Source: a virus
IMG/VR virus record: IMGVR_UViG_3300022696_000071
Coordinates: 169,748-201,166 of that record
Direction: 5' to 3' (one strand)
DNA: 31,419 bases
In this document: positions 4,899 through 31,345 of the stretch, piece by piece
Position numbering within the stretch: the stretch's first letter is position 1
How the letters are laid out: each line of letters opens with the position of its first letter
Position numbers and translations under genes: made by a program
Notes under the pieces: model-generated
Databases searched by the model: none
The model's input: only the letters and a program-made list of their open reading frames with translations
Told to the model about the DNA's origin: nothing

Positions 4899-5429
4899 TT
4901 AAATGAAAAAATTGATGTTGGTTAACTTAATAATTATTCTGTTAAAATCATAGATAAGTATAGTTGAAAGAATATTTTTTGTAAATGTACTGACTGGATT
5001 TATATAATATGCAAATATATCGGAATGTATAGCTTTACTGGATATATACTTTTCATTTTTATATGTATATCTATGTTGCAATTTTTCTAAATATTCTCTA
5101 TATGGTAATATATAACCATTAACACAAATATATGTATAAAAGTTTCGTGGGTCATGTATAGATGGTGCCAATAATCTATTATTATTATAATTTATATGAA
5201 TTGATCTATTCATAACATCAAAATCAATTTTATCTATAGTTGCACCATGCTTAATTAGATACTTTTTAACTTCTCTTTCAAAATTTTTATGATTTTCTTC
5301 TATAAATTTAGTATCAATTTTTCGTTCATCAAATATAAATTTAAATCTTAATCTTATATTATTTATATCTTTTTGGATTATATTATTAGTTTCATCTATA
5401 ACCCTTCTTATATTCAAATAACTCATCAT
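4899..5429 (-). CDS. hypothetical protein, member of window-wide paralog family (YTYICVNGYILP motif)
   Basis: ORF track frame. Its start overlaps the next gene (ATGA). Shares the central Y-T-[FY]-I-x-x-N-G motif with ORFs 5426, 5929, 12096 and 12686. Confidence 0.55.
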   Translation of the reverse strand: MMSYLNIRRVIDETNNIIQKDINNIRLRFKFIFDERKIDTKFIEENHKNFEREVKKYLIKHGATIDKIDFDVMNRSIHINYNNNRLLAPSIHDPRNFYTYICVNGYILPYREYLEKLQHRYTYKNEKYISSKAIHSDIFAYYINPVSTFTKNILSTILIYDFNRIIIKLTNINFFI

Positions 5430-5932
5430 AATATATATCCTTTCTCTGACAAGACATCATATATCTTTTCTACTCCAATATATAGATCATAATTCAATGT
5501 ATAATCAAAAACTAAACCATTATTTCCACTTAAATGACCATCAAAAAATTCTCCTAATTCATTCTTATATACATATATATTTGTAAATTTAAATTCGGTT
5601 GGTTTAAATTTATTTATCATAGATTTAAAATAATGATAATCTATAAATATACCAAATTTTATATTTAATGCACTATATAAATTTGATGGAATTATATAAA
5701 TGTTTTTTACTAATGGTTTAGAACCAAATGATATTCTATAATCTATATATTTAATATTATTCCTATTATACTTTCTTAAATATTCAGTAACATATTTTCT
5801 TATTTTTTCATGTAATTTAACTTTACCATTAAAAGTGTATTTTTTATCACTATATTTATCATTAATATAGTCTAATAATTCATCATATTTTTTGAAAAAT
5901 ATTTCATCTTGTATTAATTTCGATAAATTCAT
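5426..5932 (-). CDS. hypothetical protein, paralog family member (C-terminal ...SEKGYIL)
   Basis: Overlapping-start operon arrangement. C-terminal G-Y-I-L and internal IYIIPSNLYS resemble other family members. Confidence 0.55.
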   Translation of the reverse strand: MNLSKLIQDEIFFKKYDELLDYINDKYSDKKYTFNGKVKLHEKIRKYVTEYLRKYNRNNIKYIDYRISFGSKPLVKNIYIIPSNLYSALNIKFGIFIDYHYFKSMINKFKPTEFKFTNIYVYKNELGEFFDGHLSGNNGLVFDYTLNYDLYIGVEKIYDVLSEKGYIL

Positions 5933-6531
5933 AACATAAATCCTCTACTATTAATGATATCAAATATTCTAATAAATTTTGAAAAAATAGGGCAAATATT
6001 AAAAGTTATTGTCTTTCTTTTAGAATCTGGATGAAATGCTACAAATACCATAATATTTTCATAAATATAATACTCCATATTAAATATATCTGTCGTTATA
6101 CTATTTTCCATAATTATATTATATTTATTTTTATTAAATTCATCTGATGATAAAAATATTCCATTCGATAAGATAAATGTATATAAATTTAATGGTTTTG
6201 GAATATAGACTTGATCACACTCAAGTTTAATACTATTAAATTTTTCAAATTGTATATATTTTAAATCCAATATATCATTATATTTAATATTCAACTCTTC
6301 TAAAAAGAATTTTTTTAATTCATCATTTAAAAATGTAGTAAGATATTCACCACGTTTAAAATACTCATCAAAATTTCCATCTTTTCTTAATCTTTCTAAA
6401 AAATTAGTTTCACATAAAATATTAGTTAGTGAAACTAATTTGTATTTTCCTTGATTTTCAATAAATTTAATTATTCCAATTCTATTATCAACATAAGTAT
6501 CCTTTAATAATTTTGATATGATTTCATTCAT
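5929..6531 (-). CDS. hypothetical protein, paralog family member (YTFILSNGIFLS ... INSRGFML-COOH)
   Basis: Motif match to 12096 (YTFVLLCGVPGN ... INSKGLIL) and 12686 (YTVILLCGISTT ... INSRGIII). RBS AGGTGAT. Confidence 0.6.
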   Translation of the reverse strand: MNEIISKLLKDTYVDNRIGIIKFIENQGKYKLVSLTNILCETNFLERLRKDGNFDEYFKRGEYLTTFLNDELKKFFLEELNIKYNDILDLKYIQFEKFNSIKLECDQVYIPKPLNLYTFILSNGIFLSSDEFNKNKYNIIMENSITTDIFNMEYYIYENIMVFVAFHPDSKRKTITFNICPIFSKFIRIFDIINSRGFML

Positions 6532-6552
6532 ATAATCACCTATAAAACAAAA

Positions 6553-6586
6553 AACGGTTTATATGAATAAGATCATATAAACCGTT
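6553..6586 (-). terminator. rho-independent terminator (14-bp perfect stem AACGGTTTATATGA/TCATATAAACCGTT, then UUUUUGUUUUAU on the minus transcript)
   Basis: Inverted repeat read directly. U-run lies on the minus-strand side, 22 nt downstream of the stop of ORF 6609..7472. Confidence 0.7.
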
Positions 6587-6608
6587 CATATTCAAAAATT
6601 ATTGATAT

Positions 6609-7472
6609 TTATTGATTTATTTGTGGAACCATATCATTCGGAACTATTAAGTTACCATAACAATATATTTTATATTCAACATTATCAGTTTCAGTTTCGA
6701 GAACCATTATTAATGAATCGATACATGTCATACCATCTCTCGAAAACCTATTTGCTTCTGTGAATGTTGATAATTTATAACATTTTACACTTATTTCATC
6801 AAATCCAAGTATGAATGGATCAAGTGGGAATACAGTTGTTCCAGTTGTTTCTATATCCAAATCAATAGTTAATATTTTGCCGATTGTTGATGCAGAAGCA
6901 TCTCCCACTGGACATACAATTAGATCACATTTATCACCAGTGAATTCAAGTTGTAAAAATGTTGAATCTAATCCCCTTCCTAATGCATCCATTCTATTGA
7001 TGAGAAATCTTTGTATCTCTACTTCAAATATTGGTTGATTTGGATCGAATACAATATATCTATTATCTCTATCAGTTTCTGATATAAATCTATTGTTTAA
7101 ATATTCTTTTACTGGATTAATAAATACTATTTGAGAATAATCATCTTTAAACGTATGTTTAGTTTCAGTTATTTCAAGATCCATATCTACTTTTTGTTTC
7201 TTGAATGGATCTAACAGATCTACTTTACCCTGCAATGATATCATATCTATAGATATATTTCCTATTATATTTGATAAATCAATATTAAATATTGCAGTTT
7301 TTGAATTAGTATGTTGACATATTTCACCATTTATTATTTCCACATCATGGCACACTTTTGCTAATCTACTAAAAGTGTTAAGTAAACATGACACTTTCTC
7401 AGATTCTAAATGAATGCTAATTGGTCCTTCTTGTCTGTCTCCAACTAAATTAGTCAAGTTTTCATCTGTCAT
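6609..7472 (-). CDS. hypothetical protein (287 aa)
   Basis: Intact ORF followed by a strong terminator. Contains DLDIETTG, which resembles a DEDD-exonuclease Exo I motif, but its placement is atypical and no Exo II/III were recognised. Confidence 0.55.
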   Translation of the reverse strand: MTDENLTNLVGDRQEGPISIHLESEKVSCLLNTFSRLAKVCHDVEIINGEICQHTNSKTAIFNIDLSNIIGNISIDMISLQGKVDLLDPFKKQKVDMDLEITETKHTFKDDYSQIVFINPVKEYLNNRFISETDRDNRYIVFDPNQPIFEVEIQRFLINRMDALGRGLDSTFLQLEFTGDKCDLIVCPVGDASASTIGKILTIDLDIETTGTTVFPLDPFILGFDEISVKCYKLSTFTEANRFSRDGMTCIDSLIMVLETETDNVEYKIYCYGNLIVPNDMVPQINQ

Positions 7473-7487
7473 TTTATTTTCCCTTTT

Positions 7488-8936
7488 TTAATTTACTATC
7501 ATTTCTTTAACAGGCCAATTTCTTTCTTCATACGTCATTTTTCTCTTGGTATAACTTCTTTCAAACCAAGTGGTATTTTTTATAATCTTTGGATCATAAT
7601 CTGGACTATATTTTGGTACTCTAACAACTGGACCACCTGTATCAACAAGATCAAATACGAGTGGATTCTTCTTTATATTTTTTCCATGTTCATTCAGTAT
7701 AACTCTTTGAACTCTACCAATTGCTTGATCTATATTACCTGTTGGTGTTGACATTATAAAGCATGTAAACTCATCTCTACTATTTCCATCTCTCCCACCA
7801 GCATATGTTGCAAATACAATTTTCTTCTCATAAAATGCAACATCCAAATCATCAGTATCAGATACTTTTAATCTTTCTTTTTTGGTAGAAGTTGGTACAA
7901 ATAGACCAATATCTTTATTGTCAGCATTACATTTATCAGCAAGTGTAATCAAACAATCTTTTGTTTTTCCAAGTATAAGTGTTGGTCTATTATTATCATA
8001 TGCTTCATTAATAAGATATATTGTATTATTTATATAATGATCTATCTTATGCATTTGTTTATAATATCGTGATAATATAAATTTACCTCCCCAGGATAAA
8101 TATTTCTTATATCTATCATATATTCCAAAATTAAATTTAACTGCATAAATAAATGGATCAAGTCGCTCATCTGCTTCTTGTGGGAAATATTTAACATCTC
8201 CAAGATAATAACATATAATATCGTCTTGTCCATCTTCACGAGTAGGAGTAGCAGATAATCCATATAAACGATGACATGTCAAATGAAGAACAGCTTTAGA
8301 AAATTGTTCTGGTCCAACCCCAACATGACATTCATCAACTACTCCAACACCAATATCTGAATTCTTCAATGCATTTAAAAAATCTAATTTTTCTTTATTT
8401 ACAGCAGTATATATTACATGTGGAGTAGATAGTATTATTTTTTTATTTAATACTTTTTCATAATTTGTAGATGATAATCTCCCTATATCATCTTCTTTAA
8501 GATCAGTAAATTTAAGAAACTCATTTTCCCATTGTTTCAATAATTTATCTTTATGAGCAAATATAATTGCTTTTCTTTTTATTTTAGATATAGCTGCAAT
8601 AGTTATGACTGTTTTGCCAGAACCAGGTTCTAATTGAAGTACGCCTTTTGTGTTTGCTACTAAAAAATTAATAGCTTTTTCTTGTCTCTTATTTCTTGGA
8701 ACAATTTTCGAATTTATATCAATCTTTTCGCCTTTTATAGTGAAGTCAACAATTGGTTCAGAAGTGATGGGATAATTTCGAGGTATAAGTATATTATTGC
8801 TATCATATTCTGCATAAAATTTTATTCTTGAAACTGAATTATCCCACCCCTGAATTGTTCTATCAAGATCGCTTCTTATTTGCTCAAAACGATTATGATT
8901 TCTTGGTAATAATATCCCCCCTATTTTATCCAACAT
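7488..8936 (-). CDS. Superfamily-2 DEAD/DEAH-box helicase
   Basis: Walker A LEPGSGKTVI, motif II VVDECH, motif III LSATP, later QAIGRVQR (motif VI-like). Confidence 0.8.
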   Translation of the reverse strand: MLDKIGGILLPRNHNRFEQIRSDLDRTIQGWDNSVSRIKFYAEYDSNNILIPRNYPITSEPIVDFTIKGEKIDINSKIVPRNKRQEKAINFLVANTKGVLQLEPGSGKTVITIAAISKIKRKAIIFAHKDKLLKQWENEFLKFTDLKEDDIGRLSSTNYEKVLNKKIILSTPHVIYTAVNKEKLDFLNALKNSDIGVGVVDECHVGVGPEQFSKAVLHLTCHRLYGLSATPTREDGQDDIICYYLGDVKYFPQEADERLDPFIYAVKFNFGIYDRYKKYLSWGGKFILSRYYKQMHKIDHYINNTIYLINEAYDNNRPTLILGKTKDCLITLADKCNADNKDIGLFVPTSTKKERLKVSDTDDLDVAFYEKKIVFATYAGGRDGNSRDEFTCFIMSTPTGNIDQAIGRVQRVILNEHGKNIKKNPLVFDLVDTGGPVVRVPKYSPDYDPKIIKNTTWFERSYTKRKMTYEERNWPVKEMIVN

Positions 8937-9229: not shown

Positions 9230-10276
9230 TTATGAATCATCGTCCATTTCAGGAACATATATATACCTATCAGATATATATGAATTTCTATAATCAGACA
9301 TTAAAATATCATTATATTCTAAATCAACATATGATTCTGTAGTTTCCCATAATCTCAATTTATATAATCCCTTTAACAATGCTTCTTTTTCTAATACCAA
9401 CCATATATAAAGAATAATATTTTCAGCAGTTGGATTAACATCTTTTAAAATTTGATTAACATAAGAATGATCAAATCTATCTACTATATATTTATTTACT
9501 TTATCTTTTAATTTTCCAAAATCTATAGTAAATCCATAATAATCTTTTGGTAATCTTAATGTAACTTCTAATTTATAATCATGACCATGAACATACATAC
9601 ATTTTCCATTATATCCATATAAATTATGCGACGAACAGAATCTAAATATTTTTGTTATATTCATATATGTATCTGGTATAATATGATCATTACATAATGG
9701 TATATAATCTGTAACTAAACCAATATCATCAGATTCATTATTATGTAGTTTACCAAATTCTTCTCTTCTATTTCCACAATAAAAACATATATGCTCTCGT
9801 TCATTTTGATTATGATAAAATTCTGCAATTGATGATAACTGACGAATTGATGTATAGCCGTTTATTTTTTTATTTGAATCTACATATTCAGATATAAATG
9901 TGAATAATTTTTCATCATTTTCTGGTAAATTTGAATCGATATTATAATCAGTTATTAAGTCTAATGATTTTCCCATTGTTTTGATATCAAATATATTGCC
10001 ATATAAATTATATATTTTTCTATTTGGCATTAATTTCATTATTCGCCATTTTATAAGATTTAATAAATCATCAGTACCTTTTATTCTAACATTATAAGAA
10101 TTATACATGTATTTATTAACTTCAAATTTTATTTCAGATATACCATATGACGTATTCTTAATAATAGTATCCAATTTATTTATTGTATCTTTTAAAATAT
10201 CAATACTAATTCTACCAAGTGATATACTTCTTATTAAATCGTTAAATGTATTAAACGTTTCTAATTTTTTTGACAT
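9230..10276 (-). CDS. queD: Two-domain protein: N-terminal unknown region (about 215 aa with CxxC and DHIIP) fused to a C-terminal QueD/6-carboxy-tetrahydropterin synthase (PTPS) domain
   Basis: C-terminal about 125 aa align by eye to E. coli QueD. Matches include FRFCSSHNL/FEAAHRL, KCMYVHGHDY/KCGRLHGHSF, IDFGKLK/IDFAELK, RFDHSYVNQI/RLDHHYLNDI and NPTAENIILYIW/NPTSEVLAKWIW. This covers the Cys-x4-HGH zinc/catalytic motif. Confidence 0.78.
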   Translation of the reverse strand: MSKKLETFNTFNDLIRSISLGRISIDILKDTINKLDTIIKNTSYGISEIKFEVNKYMYNSYNVRIKGTDDLLNLIKWRIMKLMPNRKIYNLYGNIFDIKTMGKSLDLITDYNIDSNLPENDEKLFTFISEYVDSNKKINGYTSIRQLSSIAEFYHNQNEREHICFYCGNRREEFGKLHNNESDDIGLVTDYIPLCNDHIIPDTYMNITKIFRFCSSHNLYGYNGKCMYVHGHDYKLEVTLRLPKDYYGFTIDFGKLKDKVNKYIVDRFDHSYVNQILKDVNPTAENIILYIWLVLEKEALLKGLYKLRLWETTESYVDLEYNDILMSDYRNSYISDRYIYVPEMDDDS

Positions 10277-10294: not shown

Positions 10295-11671
10295 TCAAGT
10301 TATAATATCATTATATATTTTTACACATTCATTATTTATATTTTTTAATTTTGACTCATTATCTTTAACTTTATTTTCTAATTCATGTATATCTAATTCA
10401 ACAGTTAATAATTTCTTTATCTTATATTTATTTATTATATTTTCTATATCTTCTCTACTTTCATATATTTTATGAGATATATCATCGATATATTCATCTT
10501 TCCAGCCAGTTTCAGAAAGATGACTAATATATGGTCTTATTTTACCAACTATATTTAACTCTTTTATTTTTTTATTTAGTGATTCTATTTGTAAGTTATG
10601 ATATTTCTCTTTAGCAGCTTTAAAATGATTATATGCAGATAATAGAAAATCATCTACGCCTATACTTTTGACAGTATCATCTTCAACAACCATTATATTG
10701 TATGACCGTGTGAATGTAAGAGCATTATCTACAGCATCCACCATTTGATCAAACATTTTTTTCTTATTTCTTTTTCTGGTAACACTGATTCTGATACGAG
10801 GTGGCTTTTCAGTATATATATCTAAATCTTCATAATCATCTTCTTTTTCATCACCAGTTTCATCAACAAATGAGATATTACCATCACTTGCAAGATTATA
10901 TTTTTTATATCTATCTATTTTATTCCATATCTTCTCAAAAGATGTTCTATTATCAAACCCTTTAACCATCACATCAAAATTCTTATTATCATTATAATAC
11001 TCTCCCTTAAATTCTATTTTAGCTGAACCGTCTTTAAGAAGTTTCTTATATAATTTATCATCTGATATTGCTATGCATCCAGGGAGACTTGGTTTTATAA
11101 ATATATCCTCCTTCGATTCACCAATAAGAAATAATAATCTTTTTACTAAATCTTCTATTTTGTATGTTGGTAAATCTACTTTGAAACCAAAGGCTATCGT
11201 GTTTAAATCAAACTTTGATATGAGACATAATGGAATTGTTGTTGGAAGAGAAATCGGTTCCTCTTCACCATCGAGTTCACCATCTATCCAATCAACATAA
11301 TCAATATATTCAAATGCTATTTTTTCAATAAATGGATTCGATTTAACACTTGTATATCTTGGAGCAGCAGCATTTGTCTTCTCAATTCCCATAGAAAGTC
11401 CCCACTGCCCCGATCCATGAACCAACCCGTTGGACACTAATGTTTGTATTGGAACTTCTGCCAGAGCATATGGGTGGAGTCTGGCAGAAGTATTACCAAG
11501 TATTTTAACCGTTTTTTCAAACTTATTTTTAGCTGATCTATGAACCGTCAATAATAATCTTCTGTGAATTGGGATTAATCCATCGAGAATAGATGGTATC
11601 ATTTTTGAAGTATTCACATATTTTGCATAGCTATAGTATAACGATTTTATAATAGTATCCAATATGTACAC
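10295..11671 (-). CDS. Type II DNA topoisomerase medium subunit (GyrA-like cleavage/religation subunit, T4 gp52-like)
   Basis: GyrA N-terminal motif IPSILDGLIPIHRRLL and active-site region AAAPRYTSVKS (catalytic Tyr). 458 aa, similar in size to T4 gp52. Confidence 0.88.
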   Translation of the reverse strand: MYILDTIIKSLYYSYAKYVNTSKMIPSILDGLIPIHRRLLLTVHRSAKNKFEKTVKILGNTSARLHPYALAEVPIQTLVSNGLVHGSGQWGLSMGIEKTNAAAPRYTSVKSNPFIEKIAFEYIDYVDWIDGELDGEEEPISLPTTIPLCLISKFDLNTIAFGFKVDLPTYKIEDLVKRLLFLIGESKEDIFIKPSLPGCIAISDDKLYKKLLKDGSAKIEFKGEYYNDNKNFDVMVKGFDNRTSFEKIWNKIDRYKKYNLASDGNISFVDETGDEKEDDYEDLDIYTEKPPRIRISVTRKRNKKKMFDQMVDAVDNALTFTRSYNIMVVEDDTVKSIGVDDFLLSAYNHFKAAKEKYHNLQIESLNKKIKELNIVGKIRPYISHLSETGWKDEYIDDISHKIYESREDIENIINKYKIKKLLTVELDIHELENKVKDNESKLKNINNECVKIYNDIIT

Positions 11672-11674
11672 CTC

Positions 11675-12049
11675 CTAAATCTTCCCTGCTTTGACGAGAT
11701 CAATTACTTTTAAGCAAGTTTCTTTCCCAAATTTGGATATATGGCAATCTTTATAGGGTATATCGAGCAATTTAGACAAGTTTAAATATACTCGCGTTCT
11801 TGACATAATACCATTTTTCCAAATAAGATCTAAGTAGTTATGAGTTTCTACTCTTAATTTTTTTAATTCTGTATCGTTTATTGGTTTTCCTCTTGGTTCT
11901 CCGTATCTATCAGCACTTATACTTGATTTACATTTTGGATACTTTAAACATCCATAATACCAACCAAATCTACCATGTTTTAAAACCATATCGGATGAAC
12001 AGTGAGGACAAGTTATAATCTTCACTTCTCTTATAGTAGCTGTTTCCAT
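11675..12049 (-). CDS. Topoisomerase-type C4 zinc-ribbon protein (124 aa)
   Basis: CPHCSSDMVLKHGRFGWYYGCLKYPKC matches the zf-C4 topoisomerase ribbon pattern (CxxC ... GxFGx[YF]xGC..YPxC). Stop lies 3 nt from the gp52-like start. Confidence 0.7.
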   Translation of the reverse strand: METATIREVKIITCPHCSSDMVLKHGRFGWYYGCLKYPKCKSSISADRYGEPRGKPINDTELKKLRVETHNYLDLIWKNGIMSRTRVYLNLSKLLDIPYKDCHISKFGKETCLKVIDLVKAGKI

Positions 12050-12095
12050 ATTAATTACCTTTTACTCACATAAATAATATATTTCCTTTCTTATA

Positions 12096-12674
12096 TTATA
12101 ATATTAAGCCTTTACTATTAATTATTGAATATATCCCATGCGCATTCATATTAGTTCTATTAACATTAGGATAAAACGAAGAATATAATGGTTCACCATG
12201 TTCAACTTTAAAAACTATAATAAATGCATCATTTTCATATATAAAACCAAGTTCACGATGATCATCGAATACAAAGTTATCATTTTTTGTTTCTTTTCTA
12301 ATATGTTTAGAAAATTCTGCATAATTTCCAGGTACACCACAAAGTAGTACAAATGTATATGGGTCATTAAGGATTATAAAATCTAATAAATATAACGAAT
12401 CTTTAAAGTGTCGGATAAATATAGATGGATCTGCCATCACACCTCTACAATAAATAAAATCACCACATGATTTTTCATTTATTAATTCGTATAGTTTTTT
12501 AGTTACATATACAAGTTGTTCAATTATTAATTCATTTCTGCTATTTGGAAAATCTTTACTGTATGGATCGATACATTTTCCAAATTTTTCTACATATTTT
12601 CTCGATGCTTTGTTTATGATGTTGTGCAACTCAGATAACAAATAATTCGATATTAATACTTCCATTAAATCCAA
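12096..12674 (-). CDS. hypothetical protein, paralog family member (192 aa)
   Basis: Tandem paralog of 12686..13258 (CRGVMADPSIFIRHF/CKGVMISPDVFISKV; YTFVLLCGVPGNYAEF/YTVILLCGISTTYTIF; C-terminal INSKGLIL/INSRGIII). Confidence 0.6.
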   Translation of the reverse strand: MDLMEVLISNYLLSELHNIINKASRKYVEKFGKCIDPYSKDFPNSRNELIIEQLVYVTKKLYELINEKSCGDFIYCRGVMADPSIFIRHFKDSLYLLDFIILNDPYTFVLLCGVPGNYAEFSKHIRKETKNDNFVFDDHRELGFIYENDAFIIVFKVEHGEPLYSSFYPNVNRTNMNAHGIYSIINSKGLIL

Positions 12675-12685
12675 TTTATCTTCAT

Positions 12686-13258
12686 TTATATAATTATACC
12701 TCTACTATTAATATTCTTATATATCCAATTTATATTTATACGAGAAACATCCATTTTTAAATCAAATATTAATTTAATATAATCAGAATGGTGAAAATCA
12801 TAATCGATATTAAATAATTCATGTTTATATCTATTTCCGCCATGTATAACATTTGAATATAATGATTTACGATTTATATAGTTTTGATAAAATATAGTAT
12901 AAGTTGTAGATATTCCGCATAATAATATAACAGTATATATATCATTAGCTTTTATATGATCAAACACACATTTTTCATCTACTTTTGATATAAACACATC
13001 TGGTGATATCATTACACCTTTACAAAATTCAAAACAATTTTTAGAATTTTTATATATTAAATAATATAATTTATTTGTTAAATTTAATATTGTATCAAGC
13101 AATAATTTATTATTATATTCTTTATATTTATGGTATTCTCTTCTATAAGGATTAGCATTTAATTTACTATAATATTCATCGTATGTTAATTTTATCAATT
13201 CCATTAATTCAGATAACATATATTTTCTCAATAAAATTTCTGCTCTATCTTTATCCAT
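12686..13258 (-). CDS. hypothetical protein, paralog family member (190 aa)
   Basis: See the previous feature; an intact ORF. Confidence 0.6.
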   Translation of the reverse strand: MDKDRAEILLRKYMLSELMELIKLTYDEYYSKLNANPYRREYHKYKEYNNKLLLDTILNLTNKLYYLIYKNSKNCFEFCKGVMISPDVFISKVDEKCVFDHIKANDIYTVILLCGISTTYTIFYQNYINRKSLYSNVIHGGNRYKHELFNIDYDFHHSDYIKLIFDLKMDVSRININWIYKNINSRGIII

Positions 13259-13278: not shown

Positions 13279-15120
13279 TTAATCTTCTTCTATTTTCCAT
13301 TCTCCCATAGCTAATTTCCGTTTCTCAGAACTTAATGTTAATAAATCGGTTATTTTATCAATATTACTGGTCCATGTTACTTTTCTTATTTTTCTCGTAT
13401 TCTTATCCAGTATAAGTCGTTTCAAATCTTTTGGTAAGAATTCTCCTAATCCTTTAAATCTATATATCTTTTCTCCTTTATTTGATGCTTCTTTTCTTTC
13501 ATTTGTTGTCCAAATTGGAACCAATTTTTTATTTCTACGAACACCATATAATGGAATAATACAAATATAAAGATTTCCATTTTTGATAATATCTGGAGTC
13601 AATTTTGCAAAAAGAGCAATAAGAAGAACTGTAATGAATCGACCAGCAGGATCAGCGTCTGCTGCTAATAATATTTTATCATATCGTAATTTTTTAATAT
13701 TACAATTATCAAGTATTCCAGTTCCAACAGCATTCACTATATCTTTTATTTCTTTATTTTTTATTAATTCATCTGTTTTCTTCATCATTGCATTTGGTAT
13801 TACACCACGAAGAGGGAGTATGGCATGATGTTTTTTATCTCTTACTTGAATAAGACCACCTATTGCAGAATCACCCTCCCCGATTATCAATTCAGAATTC
13901 TTTCTACTTTTACAATCTGATAATTTAGTGAATTTAGTTGATCCACGTTTTGTACCAGTTCCATTTCCCTTCTCAATTTTCAATGCTCTATTTTGAATTG
14001 ATTTTCTTCTCAATTCGAATCGTTCTATTAATTTATCTCTTATTTCTTTATTCTTAGAAAAATAATTAAATAATTCTCTATTAAGTATTTTATCCAAAAC
14101 TGATAAATCACTTTTGGACTCAAGTTTAACTTTAACTTGAGCTTCAAAAGATGTTTTTATTAATTTAAGATCCATGAATATACGAAGATTTGCAAGACAA
14201 TCTTCTGGAATATATTCTGCTTTATGTTTCTTTCCAATTCGCTCAAATACAGATTTTAATTCATTTGTTAACTTAGTTATATGAACGCCACTATGTACTC
14301 GTACTAAATTAACACATGTGAATGATTTTGTAGCAATTGGTGGATGATCATCCCATCCAATTTTAAGAAAACATTCTTCTGGTCCCTTTTTTACAGTAAA
14401 TTCAAACCATTCAATATTATCTATATGTTTTGTTAGATAATATTTTATAAGATCATTTCTATCTGTATTTATAACAACATCATTTCCATCTACTCGATAT
14501 ACAATTCTAAGTTTTGGATAATTTGAACATGCAATTCTTAATTTTTCTTCAATTACATCTAAATCTACACCAGTATCATTGAAATATTTAGAAGATGGTT
14601 TTACAGTTACTTTAGTTGAATATGGTGGATTACCATTATATGTTTCAAACTTTCGTGAATAGTCAGATGTATTCTTAAATGAATATGTTCCACGTTTTCC
14701 ATCTCTATAAATATCTATTTCAAAATATTCAGATACTGCGTTAACTGCTGTATTTCCAATTCCATGTAATCCACTCGCTATCTTATAAGCAGAATCTTTT
14801 TTGTCTTTATTAAATTTACCAGATGAAAAAAGTTTAAGAGAAGTAGAAATGGGTGGATCTTCTTCTTCTGGAAGATCAGGATCAAATGGCATACCTCTAC
14901 CATTATCTAATACTCTAAATTCTTTATTTTCAGTATCAATAAATACACCAATTATATCACTGTAGCCAGCTTGAACTTCATCAAGAGCATTATCGATTAA
15001 TTCTTCTGCTAATCTCGTAGCAGTTTCAGTACTTCCTAAATACATACCCGTATTATGACGAATATGATTGATTTCATCCATTACAACTATATCTTCAGTT
15101 CCATAAATATCCATAAGCAT
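13279..15120 (-). CDS. Type II DNA topoisomerase large subunit (GyrB-like ATPase + TOPRIM; T4 gp39 fused with gp60 equivalent)
   Basis: GHKL ATPase N-box EELIDNALDE, TOPRIM IIGEGDSAIGG and DADPAG. 613 aa is about T4 gp39 (516) plus gp60 (160), as in T2-type fused genes. Continuous frame with no bypass gap. Confidence 0.9.
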   Translation of the reverse strand: MLMDIYGTEDIVVMDEINHIRHNTGMYLGSTETATRLAEELIDNALDEVQAGYSDIIGVFIDTENKEFRVLDNGRGMPFDPDLPEEEDPPISTSLKLFSSGKFNKDKKDSAYKIASGLHGIGNTAVNAVSEYFEIDIYRDGKRGTYSFKNTSDYSRKFETYNGNPPYSTKVTVKPSSKYFNDTGVDLDVIEEKLRIACSNYPKLRIVYRVDGNDVVINTDRNDLIKYYLTKHIDNIEWFEFTVKKGPEECFLKIGWDDHPPIATKSFTCVNLVRVHSGVHITKLTNELKSVFERIGKKHKAEYIPEDCLANLRIFMDLKLIKTSFEAQVKVKLESKSDLSVLDKILNRELFNYFSKNKEIRDKLIERFELRRKSIQNRALKIEKGNGTGTKRGSTKFTKLSDCKSRKNSELIIGEGDSAIGGLIQVRDKKHHAILPLRGVIPNAMMKKTDELIKNKEIKDIVNAVGTGILDNCNIKKLRYDKILLAADADPAGRFITVLLIALFAKLTPDIIKNGNLYICIIPLYGVRRNKKLVPIWTTNERKEASNKGEKIYRFKGLGEFLPKDLKRLILDKNTRKIRKVTWTSNIDKITDLLTLSSEKRKLAMGEWKIEED

Positions 15121-17581: not shown

Positions 17582-17660
17582 TGGTGGACCCTGCTGGATT
17601 CGAACCAGCGAATGATCGGTTATGAGCCGATGGCCTTACCAGACTTGGCGAAGGGTCCAC
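17582..17660 (-). tRNA. tRNA-Met (anticodon CAT; elongator-type; could alternatively be lysidine-modified tRNA-Ile2), CCA encoded
   Basis: Acceptor GTGGACC/GGTCCAC, anticodon stem ATCGG/CCGAT with loop CTCATAA, T-arm GCTGG-TTCGAAT-CCAGC, discriminator A, then CCA. Confidence 0.85.
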
Positions 17661-19276: not shown

Positions 19277-19336
19277 ACAAAAATCTAAATTGATCTTTGA
19301 TTATAATTTAATATATATAGTCAGTTGAATATATAT

Positions 19337-19699: not shown

Positions 19700-20002
19700 T
19701 CAAATAATAAATCCATATTCTATTTTATAAATTATAATATCTATAGTAATTGGATCTTCTAAAACTACTATATGATTATAAGCTTTATTATCGGAACCAA
19801 TTACATCGATGGTTAAAACACACTTAAAACCAATATCTATATCGTTAAAATCATGATATTTATATCTATTAGAATTATATAAATCACTTATAGTTTTATT
19901 TAATAATATAATATTATGAATGTATTCTCTACATGGATCATCTTCATCAAGCATATTATTTAAATATTTTTCAAACTTTGTCTTTTCCATTATTCGCCCC
20001 AT
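19700..20002 (-). CDS. hypothetical protein (100 aa; C-terminal ...KIEYGFII like paralog family end)
   Basis: ORF track. The C-terminal G-F-I-I resembles the family-wide C-terminal motif. Confidence 0.45.
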   Translation of the reverse strand: MGRIMEKTKFEKYLNNMLDEDDPCREYIHNIILLNKTISDLYNSNRYKYHDFNDIDIGFKCVLTIDVIGSDNKAYNHIVVLEDPITIDIIIYKIEYGFII

Positions 20003-20811: not shown

Positions 20812-21129
20812 TTATTTAAGTATTAATACTATGCTTCCAGATTCATAAATAACAGTTTCCCCTTTATCTGCTCTATTCTTAATTATTTTATATAATATCC
20901 TCTCCAATTCGACTTGCGCTTTTCTGAGAATATCTCCGTAGTATACCCCTATACTCGGAACAGCAAAAAGTTCCCGTAGAGTTATCTTTTTCGGGGAACG
21001 ATAATTATCACCAACTTCTAATCTATCATATAGTACTATGCTAACAGAACTATCTGGATTATCATCTAATGATAAAACGAAGTTATTTATTTCAGTCACT
21101 ATTCCTTCATCTATAAATATAATCGGCAT
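20812..21129 (-). CDS. hypothetical protein (105 aa)
   Basis: ORF with RBS AAAAAAGGAGG immediately upstream of the ATG. Confidence 0.55.
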   Translation of the reverse strand: MPIIFIDEGIVTEINNFVLSLDDNPDSSVSIVLYDRLEVGDNYRSPKKITLRELFAVPSIGVYYGDILRKAQVELERILYKIIKNRADKGETVIYESGSIVLILK

Positions 21130-21467: not shown

Positions 21468-21953
21468 TTAAGTTTTTTCGTTATTCAACATATATAGTTT
21501 ATTTTCTATAGCCAATTTATCTCTAATAACTGAATGATCGATTTTAACCCATTTAACAATATTATCAAAAACAACCATCATCGATAATGTTTCTAAATCG
21601 ACTATAGCAAGTTGACCATTTTTAACAGCTTCAACATCACTACGTGCATAACCTTTTCCAGTAAAAAATTCATAATTTCTTGGATCAATATCAAGAAATA
21701 AATATTTTACTGGTTCGTTTTTAGTTATTTCTGCATAATTAGTTTCTTTAATCGGACATCTTATTCTATCACATTTTGTAATCGTATATAATTTATAATC
21801 CAATAAACTGCAGTTTTCTAACCCTATACTATTAACAAGCTTATGTTCACACATATCACTTGTCATGGTTATACCTTTATTCTTTATAATCCATCCCATA
21901 ATAATCCCTTTTTTATATGGAAGTGGCGGCTGGATTTGAACCAGCGAAAACAT
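21468..21953 (-). CDS. hypothetical protein (161 aa)
   Basis: Intact ORF between tRNA-Tyr and tRNA-Gln. Confidence 0.5.
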   Translation of the reverse strand: MFSLVQIQPPLPYKKGIIMGWIIKNKGITMTSDMCEHKLVNSIGLENCSLLDYKLYTITKCDRIRCPIKETNYAEITKNEPVKYLFLDIDPRNYEFFTGKGYARSDVEAVKNGQLAIVDLETLSMMVVFDNIVKWVKIDHSVIRDKLAIENKLYMLNNEKT

Positions 21954-21994
21954 GAGCCAAAATCATGTGTCTTAAACCACTCGACCACGCCACT
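21918..21994 (-). tRNA. tRNA-Gln (anticodon TTG), CCA encoded
   Basis: Continuous 9-bp acceptor helix read as 7-bp AGTGGCG/CGCCACT, U8, anticodon stem CATGA/TCATG with loop TTTTGGC, T-arm GCTGG-TTCAAAT-CCAGC, discriminator U, then CCA. The 3' end overlaps the start region of ORF 21468..21953 by about 36 nt. Confidence 0.75.
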
Positions 21995-22300
21995 TCAGTT
22001 TAAAATAAGCCCACTCGACATACTATATATTTTATCAAAAAGTACACAATCTTTGTCATTTAGATATATAGTATGTCCAAATGACCCATTGTGTAATACT
22101 AATCCAAACGAATAAGTATTATCGTAAACTAAAACTCCATACTCATTGGGTGAACAATATTTAACTCTCATTGTATTATACTTATAATTTCTTTTATAAA
22201 GATCTATGTAACATAAAACATCTCTGATATTATCGGTTAATCTTATCGTCATAATATTACTCCAATATAAGGCCACATGATATATTTTGATAAATGTCAA
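21995..22300 (-). CDS. hypothetical protein, paralog family member (YSFGLVLHNGSF ... SSGLILN-COOH)
   Basis: Family motif comparison. Confidence 0.5.
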   Translation of the reverse strand: MTFIKIYHVALYWSNIMTIRLTDNIRDVLCYIDLYKRNYKYNTMRVKYCSPNEYGVLVYDNTYSFGLVLHNGSFGHTIYLNDKDCVLFDKIYSMSSGLILN

Positions 22301-22508
22301 ATAAAGATATACAACACTTTTCAGTTAATATATGAGTAATACAATATACACCTTCATGCGTATATATATCTATAGATATTGGATATTCATCATTATAATA
22401 TTTAGATTTATAATCGGTAGATGATTTATATACATCAAAATGAGATCCACCACGATCATAAAAATCATGAATGAAATTATCCATAAATTCATTAAATTTT
22501 TTATTCAT
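22257..22508 (-). CDS. hypothetical protein (83 aa; ends ...ISCGLILE)
   Basis: ORF track. Overlaps its neighbours by short distances, so the true start may be internal. Confidence 0.4.
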   Translation of the reverse strand: MNKKFNEFMDNFIHDFYDRGGSHFDVYKSSTDYKSKYYNDEYPISIDIYTHEGVYCITHILTEKCCISLFDIYQNISCGLILE

Positions 22509-22768
22509 ATAATCACCCCATTACATATATTATTCAAAACATTATAAATAGAAATAAATTCAAAACATATCCATTTATTTGTTTGAGAATTAGAAGTATT
22601 AATATTTATAAATGATATAGTAACTATAAATAAATATGGGACATAATACTTATACTTATATTGATTAACTTTTATGTCTACTATATGTTCATAATCATTA
22701 TATTGATTTAATAGACGATCTATATTATTTAATACAACCAGTCGATTATTTCCAATATTTAAAAGCAT
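22505..22768 (-). CDS. hypothetical protein (87 aa; ends ...NNICNGVII)
   Basis: ORF track with a family-like C-terminus. Confidence 0.4.
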   Translation of the reverse strand: MLLNIGNNRLVVLNNIDRLLNQYNDYEHIVDIKVNQYKYKYYVPYLFIVTISFININTSNSQTNKWICFEFISIYNVLNNICNGVII

Positions 22769-22789: not shown

Positions 22790-23098
22790 TTATATAAAAA
22801 CACCATTATCATATAATCTATCAACTATATTATTAAATAATATTCCATTATAGATAAGATACCCATTTAAAAATATACAACCAGATGGGTTAGAATCTTT
22901 GCGTCTATGTTTCATTCTAACTATAAATATTTCAACCACCCGATTATTATTATCATAAAACTTTTGACAGTTATTTGATTCAACTTCAAAAGTAACATCA
23001 TAAAAGTTATCATCGAATCTTTCAGGATTAAAAGAATATTCAATAGAATAAGTATTATACACTCTATCTCGTGAACGTAAAATCATATAGTCACCCAA
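22790..23098 (-). CDS. hypothetical protein, paralog family member (CIFLNGYLIYNG ... YDNGVFI-COOH)
   Basis: Family motif comparison. Confidence 0.5.
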   Translation of the reverse strand: MGDYMILRSRDRVYNTYSIEYSFNPERFDDNFYDVTFEVESNNCQKFYDNNNRVVEIFIVRMKHRRKDSNPSGCIFLNGYLIYNGILFNNIVDRLYDNGVFI

Positions 23099-23948: not shown

Positions 23949-24124
23949 TCAGAGCATTTACATTCATAGAAGAAAGACCCATTTCGCTCTTTCATCAAAC
24001 GAATACCATGAATCTGTTTCCAATACACAATGGCTTTCTTATTGCAATTTGGGCATATTATTCTTTTATTCATTAATTTAACCCCTATGCAATATAGTAT
24101 CCCAACAAGTATTACCATAATCAT
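23909..24124 (-). CDS. small zinc-ribbon protein (CPNC ... CKCSDC); true start probably the internal Met at 24073 (MNKRIICPNC...)
   Basis: The internal start would abut upstream gene 24078..24278 without overlap. Two Cys pairs. Confidence 0.45.
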   Translation of the reverse strand: MIMVILVGILYCIGVKLMNKRIICPNCNKKAIVYWKQIHGIRLMKERNGSFFYECKCSDCGWIWETKRKEQ

Positions 24125-24278
24125 CGACAGACATAACTTCTTCAGTATCTAAATCAATAATTATTTTATCACCACTTTTTACATCATTCACATCATCTTC
24201 ATCATAATCGAAAGAAAATCCAACATCATCTTGTGTTATGTCTTTATCAATAATCAAATACATAATAATTCTCCTCAT
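24078..24278 (-). CDS. small highly acidic protein (about 60 aa; about one-third of residues are D/E)
   Basis: Sequence ...DKDITQDDVGFSFDYDEDDVNDVKSGDKIIIDLDTEEVMSVDDYGNTCWDTILHRG. Confidence 0.5.
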   Translation of the reverse strand: MRRIIMYLIIDKDITQDDVGFSFDYDEDDVNDVKSGDKIIIDLDTEEVMSVDDYGNTCWDTILHRG

Positions 24279-24310
24279 AATAAATCATATAATATTTATA
24301 GACGCAGAAA

Positions 24311-26961: not shown

Positions 26962-27870
26962 TTAGATCGCCGAGACGACTATCCGCGTAACCAGTTCAAG
27001 ATCCAATTCTGAATCTTTTTTCTGGTTGCTGCCGATAATCGTGCCACTTGGCGGTCCACCCCAACCACTTTCGACTTTACTGATGTCGTCAGCAGCGGGG
27101 GCAACGGAGATTCCCTTGTTACCAGCGACCGTAAACTTTCTAATCCCTTGGAAATTGGGATTAACAGCCACGACCACTTGTGCACCATTTTCATACAGTG
27201 CACCTATGGTTCCAAAGAAACCAGACTCCACCGAAGCTATAATAAGCCCCGACTTTGTCTTACCCCATGTTGCCTTTTCGACGACCTTCTGCACTTGCCG
27301 TTTATTTTCGGCGTGTGCATCGACGAATTGAACATAATGTTCATTTTCATCGACCAACAGTTTCATCGATCCAAAAGGATCAATTCCACTGCGGGAAATA
27401 TCGTCGAGAAACAATATCCCTTCTTCGACCTTTTTCGCGTTATCTTTCGGATTAACCAGAAAGATACCGGAAATTATGTCGGAGAGGAACGGGGGTTCCC
27501 CGATAGAGTATTTTCGGATCTCGTCCGGGCCGAATCTATCCATCGTATCGATGTATTTTACGATACGCTGAGTATCTTCGGTGTAGACACCGACTGGCTT
27601 ATATTTATCATAAGCCTGCCAGGTCGCCGAAACGAGACCTTCAGATCCTTCGCCATGATGATCAAAGTTCATCAGATCGACTCGACCGCTTCCACCGCAT
27701 TCGATACAAACTACGGTTGGGTCGGAAAGATCTTCAGCCTTTGCATCGCCAAAGACGAACTCAATGGCATCGGCCTTAACGTCGAAACGAAAAGCTAAAA
27801 GCCAAAGAGCACCGATAATATCAAGATCGACCTTAAACCCACAGACGATCTTGGAAATATTATCCAACAT
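26962..27870 (-). CDS. hypothetical protein encoded by an anomalously GC-rich (about 50%) gene, 302 aa; function unknown
   Basis: Perfect RBS GGAGGGAGG 6 nt before the ATG at 27870. Gly/Val/Asp/Ala-rich composition typical of a high-GC donor. ILFLDDISRSG is weakly reminiscent of a PRPP-binding loop (speculative). Overlapping long plus-strand ORFs are GC artefacts. Confidence 0.6.
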   Translation of the reverse strand: MLDNISKIVCGFKVDLDIIGALWLLAFRFDVKADAIEFVFGDAKAEDLSDPTVVCIECGGSGRVDLMNFDHHGEGSEGLVSATWQAYDKYKPVGVYTEDTQRIVKYIDTMDRFGPDEIRKYSIGEPPFLSDIISGIFLVNPKDNAKKVEEGILFLDDISRSGIDPFGSMKLLVDENEHYVQFVDAHAENKRQVQKVVEKATWGKTKSGLIIASVESGFFGTIGALYENGAQVVVAVNPNFQGIRKFTVAGNKGISVAPAADDISKVESGWGGPPSGTIIGSNQKKDSELDLELVTRIVVSAI

Positions 27871-28273
27871 AAGAATCCTCCCTCCATTGGATTTACGTGT
27901 CCAATGCTCCGTGCTTATAATATTCAGTCACCAGATTTGTCAGATCTGTTTACCCAGAATATCTTCGCTGGAGTCTCTCACGGCATATTTTCATAAACGT
28001 AATATGCAACGTTATGTTAGAATTTAATATATATAGTGATTTTAATAAAAAACACGTAATGCAAACGTGTTCCCTGGAGCATATTCCAGTATCATTTTTG
28101 TTAGATATATGGCTGACTAAACCATTACTTTTATAGTGGTATTCCACTGATTTTTTCAATGCTTTCTCACATTGCCGAGTTTTTTGCTTCTCGTATAAAG
28201 TTTTTACCAATTCTTACGCGATTGGATGGCTACACTTTATAAGTAACCATTTAGCACGTTTTCAGATTAGAAG

Positions 28274-28822: not shown

Positions 28823-28872
28823 TAATACTTAATATATATATAATATATTCATTATATATATAAAATTTTAAT

Positions 28873-29309: not shown

Positions 29310-29339
29310 GGGAAACCAATTATAAAAAATTGATTTCCC
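29310..29339 (-). terminator. rho-independent terminator immediately 3' of tRNA-Pro (12-bp stem with one mismatch, then UUUUUAUUUG on the minus transcript)
   Basis: GGGAAACCAATT ... AATTGATTTCCC inverted repeat read directly. Confidence 0.6.
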
Positions 29340-29350
29340 TTATGATAAAT

Positions 29351-29427: not shown

Positions 29428-29434
29428 AAATATA

Positions 29435-29842
29435 TTATGTTGTAATCTTCGTCTCAACATCGCCATCAGCAATATCAAAATGGATTCTCTTCTTTAATCC
29501 AACACATGATGCAATTGCTGGTAGCATTGTTTGTCTTAACGATTTTGCAATTATTCCTTTCACTCCAATTAGCCTACCAGTGTCTATCATCGTTGATGCT
29601 GATGCAGATACAACAATCAATGATGGATATTCATTTATTTGTACATCCAACTTTTTGGGATCTTTAACAAGAATATGTAATTGCGAGATTGCTCTTTCTT
29701 TGAATAATTCGAATGCTTTTTCATTACTACTTATAGATTCATTATCTTTTGATTGTTTTTCTTTTTCCACAACGCCATTATCTTTTGTATCTTTTGTCAT
29801 TTGGTATCCTTTCATTTTTGCATCAACTATAGTAAACGCCAT
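29435..29842 (-). CDS. KH-domain-like RNA-binding protein (135 aa)
   Basis: GRLIGVKGIIAKSLRQ fits the KH GxxG loop pattern (I-G-x-x-G-x-x-I). Confidence 0.5.
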   Translation of the reverse strand: MAFTIVDAKMKGYQMTKDTKDNGVVEKEKQSKDNESISSNEKAFELFKERAISQLHILVKDPKKLDVQINEYPSLIVVSASASTMIDTGRLIGVKGIIAKSLRQTMLPAIASCVGLKKRIHFDIADGDVETKITT

Positions 29843-29851
29843 TTTATTTAT

Positions 29852-30115
29852 TTATCCAAGACTCAAAGTTGCATTTGTGAAATTGATTGTTGCTCCAGGT
29901 AGTTTATTGAGTCCAACAGTATTCATCGTAACTCTTAACTTATCCATAGTGGTATCTGTAACGAACGCTTTCCGATCAACTTCAAATGCACATCCATTTT
30001 CAAAATCGATTCGAAATGTTTCTCCTCCTGGTGTAAATCCAGATACAACACCAACAACTTTTGTTCCACCATGAATTACAGTAGTTGGTCTTTTTACTTC
30101 TTTGGCTTCTGGCAT
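29852..30115 (-). CDS. hypothetical protein (87 aa)
   Basis: ORF with RBS AGGAGAGAA. Confidence 0.5.
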   Translation of the reverse strand: MPEAKEVKRPTTVIHGGTKVVGVVSGFTPGGETFRIDFENGCAFEVDRKAFVTDTTMDKLRVTMNTVGLNKLPGATINFTNATLSLG

Positions 30116-30169
30116 GATTCTCTCCTTTATTTATGTATATTCAAAGAAAAACAAAAAATAATTTAAACT

Positions 30170-30205
30170 ATAAGTATGTCCTACCTCCAATCGGACCATA
30201 CTTAT
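30170..30205 (-). terminator. terminator-like hairpin (ATAAGTATG.TCC ... GGACCATACTTAT) with long U-rich minus-strand tail
   Basis: Read directly, downstream of the stop of ORF 30379..30576. Confidence 0.45.
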
Positions 30206-30378
30206 CACATATAACATATTATTAATAAATGCAACTTAATAATGTTAATATTTAATATATATAATCATAAAATTATTTTTTTCTTTTTATATAGTTTCAT
30301 TTGATAATCTCCAACTCTACAAACACACTCATCAGACGATTCGACTTGAGTATATTTTGAGCATGGAGTTTCTTCGTA

Positions 30379-30576
30379 TCAATCATGATCATGAATTGCG
30401 CATGAATAGTTTCCAGGGGCATCACCAACTAAATGTTTACATGGACCATCGCCAATATTGGCAATTAAGTTACCTTCAATTATCCCTTTTTCTGGATCAT
30501 CAATAATAACAACAAACAATTTCTTACAGCAATATCCACATCGTAAACAAATCATATCGTAACTCCTATCTTCCAA
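30379..30576 (-). CDS. CxxCxxCC-type putative Zn/Fe-chelating domain protein (YkgJ-like), 65 aa
   Basis: CLRCGYCC ... C ... C pattern. Confidence 0.5.
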   Translation of the reverse strand: MEDRSYDMICLRCGYCCKKLFVVIIDDPEKGIIEGNLIANIGDGPCKHLVGDAPGNYSCAIHDHD

Positions 30577-30905
30577 ATAGTTTTAAGAACTCTATCCATT
30601 CTGCATAAAAATATATCATTAAAATCAATATGATGACCATATTTATCAATAATGGTATTTTTTATACGTGTGAATTCACCAGGGTTACAGTAAAATCCAT
30701 TGCCGATAGTATAATTATCTTCATTTTCTTTAAGTATATCATTTATAAAAGCAAAATATGAATCTGATGACAACCAATTATCGACATCTAATTGTTGGTG
30801 AAAACGTAACAAATGTCGATAATTGATGTAATCAAATATTTCTTCTATACTCACAGTCATAGATATATCTCTCCTATGAACAAAACATGTTGGGTATACC
30901 CCCAA
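30552..30905 (-). CDS. hypothetical protein (117 aa)
   Basis: ORF track. Confidence 0.45.
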   Translation of the reverse strand: MGVYPTCFVHRRDISMTVSIEEIFDYINYRHLLRFHQQLDVDNWLSSDSYFAFINDILKENEDNYTIGNGFYCNPGEFTRIKNTIIDKYGHHIDFNDIFLCRMDRVLKTIWKIGVTI

Positions 30906-30940
30906 CCGTTTACATGTTATAATTTAATATATATATATAT

Positions 30941-31345
30941 TCAGATTATTATACCACTGAGTCCGATATTATATATATCATGTATCGATATTATTTTTAT
31001 GATGGCATGTATATTTCCATATTTTTCATATATGATAGATCTTACATTATAAAATCTACTAAAGAATAAATAATTAGAATTTCTAAAATGGGCATCTGCA
31101 AATATATCATTATCAGAATACTCTAAATTAAATCTTTTAACTATATTCCATAATGTTATATGATAAAAAGTTAATTGTTTATAACTATCTAAACACACTG
31201 ATAATACATATCTATTATATTTTATTGAATCAGTATTTATATATCTAAATAGTGAATATGATTCATAATTAATATTCCACATTCTTTTACTATATTCATA
31301 TAATCTCATAAAATTTCTCCTCATCAATTCATTATAAAACCACAA
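30941..31345 (-). CDS. hypothetical protein, probable paralog family member (ends ...YNIGLSGIII)
   Basis: RBS GAGGAGAAA before the ATG. C-terminal motif is like INSRGIII. Confidence 0.5.
   Translation of the reverse strand: MWFYNELMRRNFMRLYEYSKRMWNINYESYSLFRYINTDSIKYNRYVLSVCLDSYKQLTFYHITLWNIVKRFNLEYSDNDIFADAHFRNSNYLFFSRFYNVRSIIYEKYGNIHAIIKIISIHDIYNIGLSGIII

Follow-up and report, generated by a model that had tools for sequence, protein, structure and literature searches.

A conserved C-terminal module shared by many small orphan proteins in an uncultured jumbo phage

Results

Genes carrying the C-terminal module

The stretch of DNA analysed here (hereafter the window) comprises 31,419 nucleotides of a viral record, IMG/VR IMGVR_UViG_3300022696_000071, positions 169,748 to 201,166. 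It has a guanine-plus-cytosine (GC) content of 28.8 per cent, nearly all of its coding capacity lies on the minus strand, and its source is a roughly 201-kb, AT-rich (29 per cent GC) jumbo phage known from metagenomes only. A set of small open reading frames (ORFs) in the window end alike, in a glycine followed by three hydrophobic residues, and this ending together with the residues just ahead of it is the module considered here. Its carriers represent about a fifth of the genes in the window and form four tandem clusters plus one isolated gene, the arrays being 5929-5426-4899, 12686-12096, 22790-22505-22257-21995 and an edge-cut ORF followed by 30941 (ORFs are named by their lower coordinate). 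The ORFs and C-terminal sequences quoted in the original prediction, which was made on this DNA from its letters alone, are all present on the minus strand. The five long ORFs (168–200 amino acids, aa) are as follows, with C-terminal sequences given up to the stop codon.

5929–6531, minus strand: 200 aa; first of tandem triple A; central YTFILSNG (aa 117–124); ends IFDIINSRGFML
5426–5932, minus strand: 168 aa; degenerate central block NLYSALNIKFG; ends IYDVLSEKGYIL
4899–5429, minus strand: 176 aa; central YTYICVNG (aa 98–105); ends IYDFNRIIIKLTNINFFI
12686–13258, minus strand: 190 aa, database protein P0001; first of tandem pair B; central YTVILLCG; ends IYKNINSRGIII
12096–12674, minus strand: 192 aa from a TTG start; central YTFVLLCG; ends IYSIINSKGLIL; database entry P0002 (189 aa) is consistent with initiation at ATG 12665

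The remaining ORFs are shorter or incomplete.

22790–23098, minus strand: first of tandem array C; likely start ATG 23086, giving 98 aa (P0133); ends …IVDRLYDNGVFI
22505–22768, minus strand: 87 aa; ends …SIYNVLNNICNGVII
22257–22508, minus strand: 83 aa; ends …LFDIYQNISCGLILE
21995–22300, minus strand: likely start ATG 22252, giving 85 aa (P0128); ends …LFDKIYSMSSGLILN
19700–20002, minus strand: isolated, 100 aa (P0129); ends …IIIYKIEYGFII
30941–31345, minus strand: likely start ATG 31324, giving 127 aa; the database protein P0132 has 122 aa; ends …HDIYNIGLSGIII
31324–31419, minus strand: 3′ part of the edge-cut ORF; ends …KLDNCGFIMN
20812–21129, minus strand: 105 aa; …ILYKII…TVIYESGSIVLILK; a candidate of uncertain membership, found under a relaxed pattern

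Some genes of the arrays overlap: the start of 5426 overlaps the stop of 5929 (ATGA), and the likely start of 30941 overlaps the stop of the module-bearing edge ORF upstream of it. Pair B lies between the two topoisomerase II subunit genes. At the end of array C, the stop codon of 21995 (21995–21997) abuts the first base of a tRNA-Gln gene (21918–21994) with no spacer, and tRNA 5′ processing would therefore cut the mRNA right after that stop. Ahead of triple A, a hairpin terminator with a strong 15-bp stem and a T-run (6552–6587, minus strand) separates 5929 from the gene of a 287-aa protein, so that the triple may be transcribed separately or attenuated.

Frequency and conservation of the ending

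The strict ending was defined as G[FILVMY]{3}.?$, that is, glycine, three hydrophobic residues, zero or one further residue and the stop. It occurs in 10 of the 53 non-overlapping minus-strand ORFs, against 0.29 expected from composition-preserving shuffles (maximum 4 in 5000) and 0.47 expected from the internal rate of the tetrapeptide. The ORF cut by the right window edge (stop 31324–31326), which had been absent from the list in the original prediction, provides an eleventh case. When all open stretches of at least 30 codons are scanned, the ending is found 11 times on the minus strand, always in genes, and the plus strand shows it in none of its 285 stretches. The controls, nine syntenic loci from phages related to the source (331 ORFs, GC 0.235–0.45), contain it once (1/331; Fisher p = 1e-8), a rate that takes in a locus of 23.5 per cent GC. 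Since the ending is rare in nine AT-rich related loci, AT-richness is not its cause. The ending is thus real and far beyond chance, as the original prediction had held, and the compositional bias that it had named as a possible refutation does not explain the module.

The conservation lies at the amino-acid level and is specific to the source phage. All four glycine codons (GGA, GGC, GGT and GGG) are in use at the terminal glycine, and in the three hydrophobic codons T is constant at position 2 while positions 1 and 3 vary; codons thus vary where the residue class is kept, which indicates that the constraint acts on protein rather than on DNA. No DNA-level repeats were found at the 3′ ends of the module genes, and an 11-nt repeat near the 12686/12096 junction was dropped because it is present elsewhere in the window too. 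The final triplet stands non-polar at the very chain end in 8 of the 11 cases and is followed by one further polar residue (N, E, N) in the other three. Counting two sequences from other phages, the chain stops three residues past the glycine in 10 of 13 and four residues past it in 3 of 13. The ending of 4899, IYDFNRIIIKLTNINFFI, looks like a variant of the module in which asparagine replaces the glycine, and that of 20812–21129, IYESGSIVLILK, adds a candidate if the pattern is relaxed.

The similarity extends upstream of the glycine. A second element, I-[YF]-x-x-[ILMV], lies 5–9 residues before it and is independent of the criterion by which the ORFs were selected; the pattern I[YF]xx[ILMV] falls within 11 residues of the terminal glycine in 6 of 10 sequences, compared with 1.2 per cent of background windows (p about 1e-9), a value that stands when the interior of the family proteins themselves is the reference. 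Among the 13 sequences anchored on the glycine, position −7 is hydrophobic in 12 and position −4 in 9, and positions −1 and −2 are polar (S/N/K/R/C), giving amphipathic conservation at −8/−7/−4, ahead of the glycine. The upstream element and the glycine ending can therefore be taken as a common unit of about 13–16 residues, and the pattern fits an amphipathic helix, a glycine cap and a terminal three-residue hydrophobic strand, all of them predicted. AlphaFold2 (AF2) models of one long and one short representative (mean predicted local distance difference test scores, pLDDT, of 48 and 54) agree in putting a helix over I-Y-x-x-I; that of the short one, 22257, also has a strand on the last residues, in the order alpha-beta-beta-beta-alpha-beta, at low confidence.

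Relationships among the carriers

The pattern Y[ST][FYV][IV][LC]..G occurs in exactly four ORFs (4899, 5929, 12096 and 12686), 79–87 residues from the end, where shuffles lead one to expect 0.005 by chance. The original prediction had placed this central block in five long ORFs; in the fifth, 5426, the block is degenerate (YSALNIKFG) and lies 82 residues from the end. ORFs 12096 and 12686 are clear paralogues (BLASTP E = 2e-23) and recover each other in leave-one-out HMMER searches. Smith–Waterman (SW) comparison of 5929 gives a z of 4.7–5.7 with 12096, collinear over almost the full length, and collinear alignments with 5426 (z 3.8) and 4899 (z 3.5–4.5); when 5348 sequences are searched with a profile hidden Markov model (HMM) of the triple, 12096 comes top, though only at E = 0.047. 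On these z-scores, the similar lengths and the tandem layout, the alignments show the five ORFs to be one subfamily. An 87-aa ORF at 29852–30115 (minus strand) is locally similar to residues 135–182 of 12686 (BLASTP E = 0.005, SW z 5.8) and is without the C-terminal module.

Among the short ORFs, 21995 and 22257 resemble each other (SW z 6.5–7), and pairs of candidates as a whole outscore other pairs (Mann–Whitney p = 2e-5), with scores that include the common module. No N-terminal conservation across members is seen in the alignments. The central motifs that had been quoted for 21995 and 22790 do not match the central pattern and lie 17–38 residues from the end, so a central block in these short ORFs is not confirmed.

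Database searches and probable orthologues

Scans of all members against Pfam and PHROGs returned nothing below E = 0.05 and no family common to two members, and PDB sequence profiles gave no match to them. The long-family HMMER profile, run against 1.84 billion representative proteins, returned the five query proteins only, and word-indexed protein searches, whether started from 12686 or from the short-ORF alignment, hit nothing beyond proteins of the source phage itself. Neither 12686, topoisomerase subunit B nor the two orthologues described next gave any match in scans of viral contigs; a metagenome scan with the orthologue pair and an exact-match scan of metagenome contigs were likewise empty. 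The set of small proteins with a common C-terminal module holds up as lineage-specific and expanded, as had been proposed.

Two single-copy genes of related phages are probable orthologues of the long subfamily, judged from sequence similarity and gene order.

L001:17380–17958: 192 aa; …NLYTHICFHGVYP…HEGAVL; central YTHICFHG
L004:12329–12757: 142 aa; …NLYTWVLFHDYYP…ESGIVL; central YTWVLFHD

Both proteins contain the NLYT-x-[IV]-[LC] block in their centre and end in G-[AI]-V-L, they match each other at E = 5.5e-7, and among the 331 related ORFs the central motif and a G-[FILVMYA]3 ending are each confined to this pair. The long-family HMM scores 16.2 bits on the first of them (E = 1e-4 in that set), against 10.6 bits for the best of 5300 decoys, and hhalign over the central block gives P = 0.0013. 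The two genes lie shortly downstream of the gene of a 264–287 aa protein and of a gene of about 100 aa, the position held by the 5929-5426-4899 triple in the window; one of them is directly upstream of an Mre11/SbcD-like nuclease gene, and the other contig stops before that point. The long subfamily thus probably descends from a single-copy gene found in at least two related phages.

The 264–287 aa protein gene is itself conserved in the replication/recombination module. In the window it lies at 6609–7472 (minus strand) and encodes 287 aa, with orthologues in L001, L003, L004, L006, L007, L009 and L010 that are 30–38 per cent identical to the window copy. Pfam, PHROGs and PDB sequences gave no match to the protein, and no support was found for its being a sliding clamp. 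Between the topoisomerase II subunit genes (11675–13258) lies a variable slot in the phage clade (L001, L003, L004 and L006–L011 compared), which is empty in L001, holds an HNH_3 endonuclease and five small ORFs in L003, and holds two long-subfamily paralogues and a Top1-type zinc-ribbon protein in the source phage. No BLAST match of the family genes was found in the conserved backbone of the relatives, and the family genes therefore occupy variable positions. Their median GC of 0.21, compared with 0.30 for other genes, is as expected for fast-evolving accessory genes.

The source phage and the surrounding genes

Topoisomerase II subunit B has many relatives at 45–60 per cent identity on metagenomic contigs of 186–335 kb, which places the source phage in an uncultured jumbo-phage clade. 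Megablast of 12 kb of the window gave no DNA-level match to phage records. An alternative genetic code was ruled out as a source of artefact, conserved genes being of normal length under code 11. The window holds seven tRNA genes, and the recognisable protein genes are the following.

1–2342: SbcC-like ORF, running off the left edge
2345–3388: Mre11/SbcD-like phosphoesterase
4165–4881: HD protein
7488–8936: SNF2/ResIII helicase
9230–10276, minus strand: PTPS/QueD-domain protein
10295–11671: topoisomerase II subunit A-like
11675–12049: Top1-type zinc-ribbon protein
13279–15120: topoisomerase II subunit B-like

Several other features of the window may be recorded. The PTPS/QueD domain occupies only residues 207–320 of the 348-aa protein at 9230–10276 (minus strand), while the PTPS protein of relatives is 129–227 aa long, which suggests a lineage-specific N-terminal fusion, possibly tied to 7-deazaguanine-type DNA modification. 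A 302-aa ORF at 26962–27870 (minus strand) has a GC of 0.46 against a window mean of 0.29, has no Pfam match and may be a recent acquisition. Between tRNA-Met and tRNA-Leu (17660–19190) there are few ORFs, GC is up at 0.36 and there is no Rfam match at gathering thresholds; the region could hold undescribed RNA or degraded genes.

A motif, CTATATATATTAAATT, is repeated in the window (24 matches with at most 3 mismatches, 8.9 expected) and may be a phage-specific promoter. The minus-strand copies at 24286, 28826 and 30921 are shortly upstream of gene starts.

Copies of CTATATATATTAAATT, minus strand: 19305–19320, 28021–28036, 30921–30936, 30249–30264, 28826–28841, 24286–24301 and 4149–4164

A separate small paralogue set, unrelated to the module carriers, is formed by 21468–21953, 24078–24278 and 30379–30576 (minus strand). 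The first matches the second at BLASTP E = 3e-4 (SW z 9.6) and the third at z 5.5, and none of the three has a Pfam match.

Discussion

A proposed structural element in amplified accessory proteins

An amphipathic helix, a glycine cap and a hydrophobic strand resemble the buried final alpha-beta unit of a domain, and for that reason a structural role is favoured here. We would put at about even the chances that the last helix–glycine–strand unit, as modelled, is a structural or oligomerisation element of tandem-duplicated, fast-diverging accessory proteins. A single-copy gene of the replication/recombination module would have been amplified in the source phage; the ancestral site would account for three of the copies and the interval between the topoisomerase II subunit genes for the other two. 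The ORFs of 83–134 aa would carry the same small alpha/beta domain, duplicated in tandem and diverged further, in which the terminal helix–glycine–strand may be the part that evolves slowest because its last strand would be buried in a sheet or a dimer interface. The proteins themselves might act as non-enzymatic accessory factors on the DNA-metabolism machinery of host or phage or on host defences, with their diversification driven by arms-race pressure.

Several results weigh against this account. The AF2 models are unreliable at pLDDT 48 and 54, and their confidence is lowest at the terminal residues, so that burial of the last strand is not shown. The chain end is fixed after the glycine while the N-terminal parts vary (83 to 200 aa in all), which is the pattern that a partner reading the terminus would also give. 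Leave-one-out HMMER profiles fail to recover 5929, 5426 and 4899, whose divergence must therefore be extreme, and an HMM built from the two orthologues fails to recover the paralogues in the window, which is why their orthology is called probable. The long-family HMM finds no short ORF above 5300 shuffled decoys, hhalign of the long against the short alignment aligns G-L-I alone (3 columns), and when the 40 residues ahead of the glycine are profiled leave-one-out, ranks rise only weakly (Fisher combination about 0.03). Common descent of short and long ORFs is plausible, since the short ORFs are likewise tandem, but is not demonstrated. The claim of a single family of at least 11 ORFs with a central block thus stands only for the five long ORFs and lacks a profile or hhalign link to the short ones.

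Alternative explanations

It is possible, though less likely, that the module is instead a portable C-terminal recognition tag for one common partner, borne by protein bodies that are unrelated or freely diverging. Candidate partners would be a host AAA+ or FtsH-type protease that reads non-polar C-termini and removes early proteins on time, a PDZ-like or strand-augmentation docking site, a sliding clamp or, by analogy with the capsid targeting sequence of T4, a virion-packaging receptor. Non-polar C-termini and ssrA-type tags are a classic bacterial degradation determinant, and such termini were reportedly described in this role by Parsell, Silber and Sauer in 1990. In keeping with a tag, the module is the sole detectable similarity between long and short ORFs, the terminus falls 3–4 residues past the glycine in 13 of 13 sequences (two other phages included) while lengths and N-terminal parts vary, and a non-polar triplet is near the chain end in every case; the T-even internal proteins, diverse but with only a short targeting sequence in common, supply a precedent (PMC3012670). 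Yet no polar or flexible linker precedes the ending, and what comes before it is a conserved amphipathic segment, predicted to be helical, with a glycine cap, which suggests that the ending packs onto the domain; the extra polar residue (N, E, N) after the triplet in three members would disrupt any recognition that depends strictly on the carboxylate. The window yielded no identifiable partner gene, whether for a PDZ domain, a protease or a clamp. With the predicted helix and the amphipathic pattern, a structural element appears to fit at least as well as the free tag that the original prediction had put forward as one option, next to a putative host-takeover or anti-defence role.

The likeness to known degradation and docking signals (ssrA-type LAA tails, PDZ class II Φ-x-Φ-COOH and clamp peptides) consists in three consecutive non-polar residues near a free carboxylate. 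Going by the last 3–5 residues, the sequence suits a non-polar C-terminal degron, with 8 of 11 members ending in the non-polar triplet. The module differs from these signals in having no LAA, no Q-L-x-L-F and no YxF, in the polar last residue of three members, and in being preceded by sequence that is predicted to be structured rather than linker-like. Sliding-clamp peptides follow the consensus Q-L-[SD]-L-F or Q-x-x-Φ-x-Φ on a flexible tail, whereas here the glutamine is absent and the motif follows a predicted helix. A bolder form of the idea, and one that we regard as rather unlikely, makes helix-Gly-ΦΦΦ-COOH an address label by which one machine of phage or host handles an arsenal of unrelated, rapidly evolving effectors; the machine could be a packaging receptor, a protease/unfoldase or a replication hub such as a clamp. 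The origin of the module would then lie in a conserved gene of the replication module, from which it would have been passed on to new gene bodies.

There is very little probability that the ending is a by-product of nucleotide signals at the 3′ ends of genes, whether a Shine-Dalgarno GG(A/T) that serves a translationally coupled downstream gene and precedes an AT-rich spacer, or an embedded promoter or −10 element. Such signals do coincide with it in places: (A/G)GA-GGN codons lie 7–9 nt before the overlapping ATGA start in 5929, 5426 and 22505, and the extra Glu codon of 22257 supplies a GGAG ribosome-binding site for 21995. However, 7 of the 11 endings precede a gap of 11–46 nt, a tRNA gene or a start with a separate ribosome-binding site, the third position of the glycine codon and positions 1 and 3 of the hydrophobic codons vary freely with the residue class kept, no ribosome-binding site could account for the I-[YF]-x-x-h element upstream, and coupled genes of related phages do without the ending (1/331). 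Overlap with a ribosome-binding site accounts for at most 3–4 of the 11 endings and was rejected as a general cause of the glycine, so that the nucleotide-signal explanation is largely refuted. Scarcely credible at all, and refuted by the controls, is the idea that the pattern arose by chance or from compositional bias, the genome being AT-rich with many I, L, F, Y and N residues. No genes in the window are more AT-rich than those of the family, which encode many aromatic and aliphatic residues, and the motif definitions were drawn up after the data were seen, but 10 endings stand against 0.3–0.5 expected, none of 5000 shuffles exceeds 4, the plus strand (0/285) and the related phages (1/331, with a 23.5 per cent GC locus among them) offer no parallel, and the second motif element has its own p of about 1e-9.

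Comparison with known systems

Internal proteins of T4 are anti-defence effectors (PMC3012670), and those of the T-even phages (IPI, IPII, IPIII and the polymorphic ip loci) resemble the module carriers in being lineage-specific, clustered and divergent and in having a short terminal peptide in common. The T4 signal differs in being N-terminal and removed by the prohead protease, where that of the module carriers is C-terminal with a predicted helix; a T4-type conserved N-terminal targeting peptide with a prohead-protease site was not found in the members. The module genes also lie in the replication/recombination module and the tRNA region, not beside head genes.

Tandem-amplified, fast-evolving small genes in variable slots of the backbone are a familiar pattern in large phages, and the hyperplastic regions of T4-like phages consist of small ORFan clusters between conserved core blocks (PMC4122927, PMC2839356). 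The window is alike in having variable slots in a backbone of topoisomerase II, PTPS, helicase, Mre11/SbcD-like and SbcC-like genes and around the tRNA genes, slots in which relatives hold other genes or none. That such genes can target DNA-topology enzymes is known from the T4 ORFan 55.2 (PMC4396842). The ORFans of hyperplastic regions are usually unrelated singletons, whereas here at least 11 share a module and five are clear paralogues; no promoter–terminator cassettes of the PeSL type were seen flanking the module genes.

A fold match to minimal, restriction-endonuclease-like PD-(D/E)xK / VRR-NUC domains came from the AF2 model of pLDDT 54, the model of the long member giving unrelated matches, and at that pLDDT it is only a lead. 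There is no conserved D…(D/E)xK in alignments A2 and A3, the sole invariant acidic column in A2 being D18 at the end of the predicted first helix, and no Pfam, PHROG or PDB sequence match to this class was obtained.

Implications

The module carriers make up an orphan family or module that is new, in a jumbo phage not characterised before: about 20 per cent of the genes in a 31-kb stretch carry one module, and the protein databases searched contain nothing recognisably related to them. In phages, multigene families restricted to one lineage often serve in dealings with the host. Under either reading, current understanding is unchanged until function is measured. An address label would be, by analogy, the C-terminal counterpart of the T4 capsid targeting sequence, and a shared handle, if true, would provide a simple sequence rule by which the whole effector set of this phage clade could be found, and experimenters could transfer it as a tag. 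Should the module be structural only, the locus would still offer a clear example of a single-copy replication-module gene amplified and diversified in one lineage.

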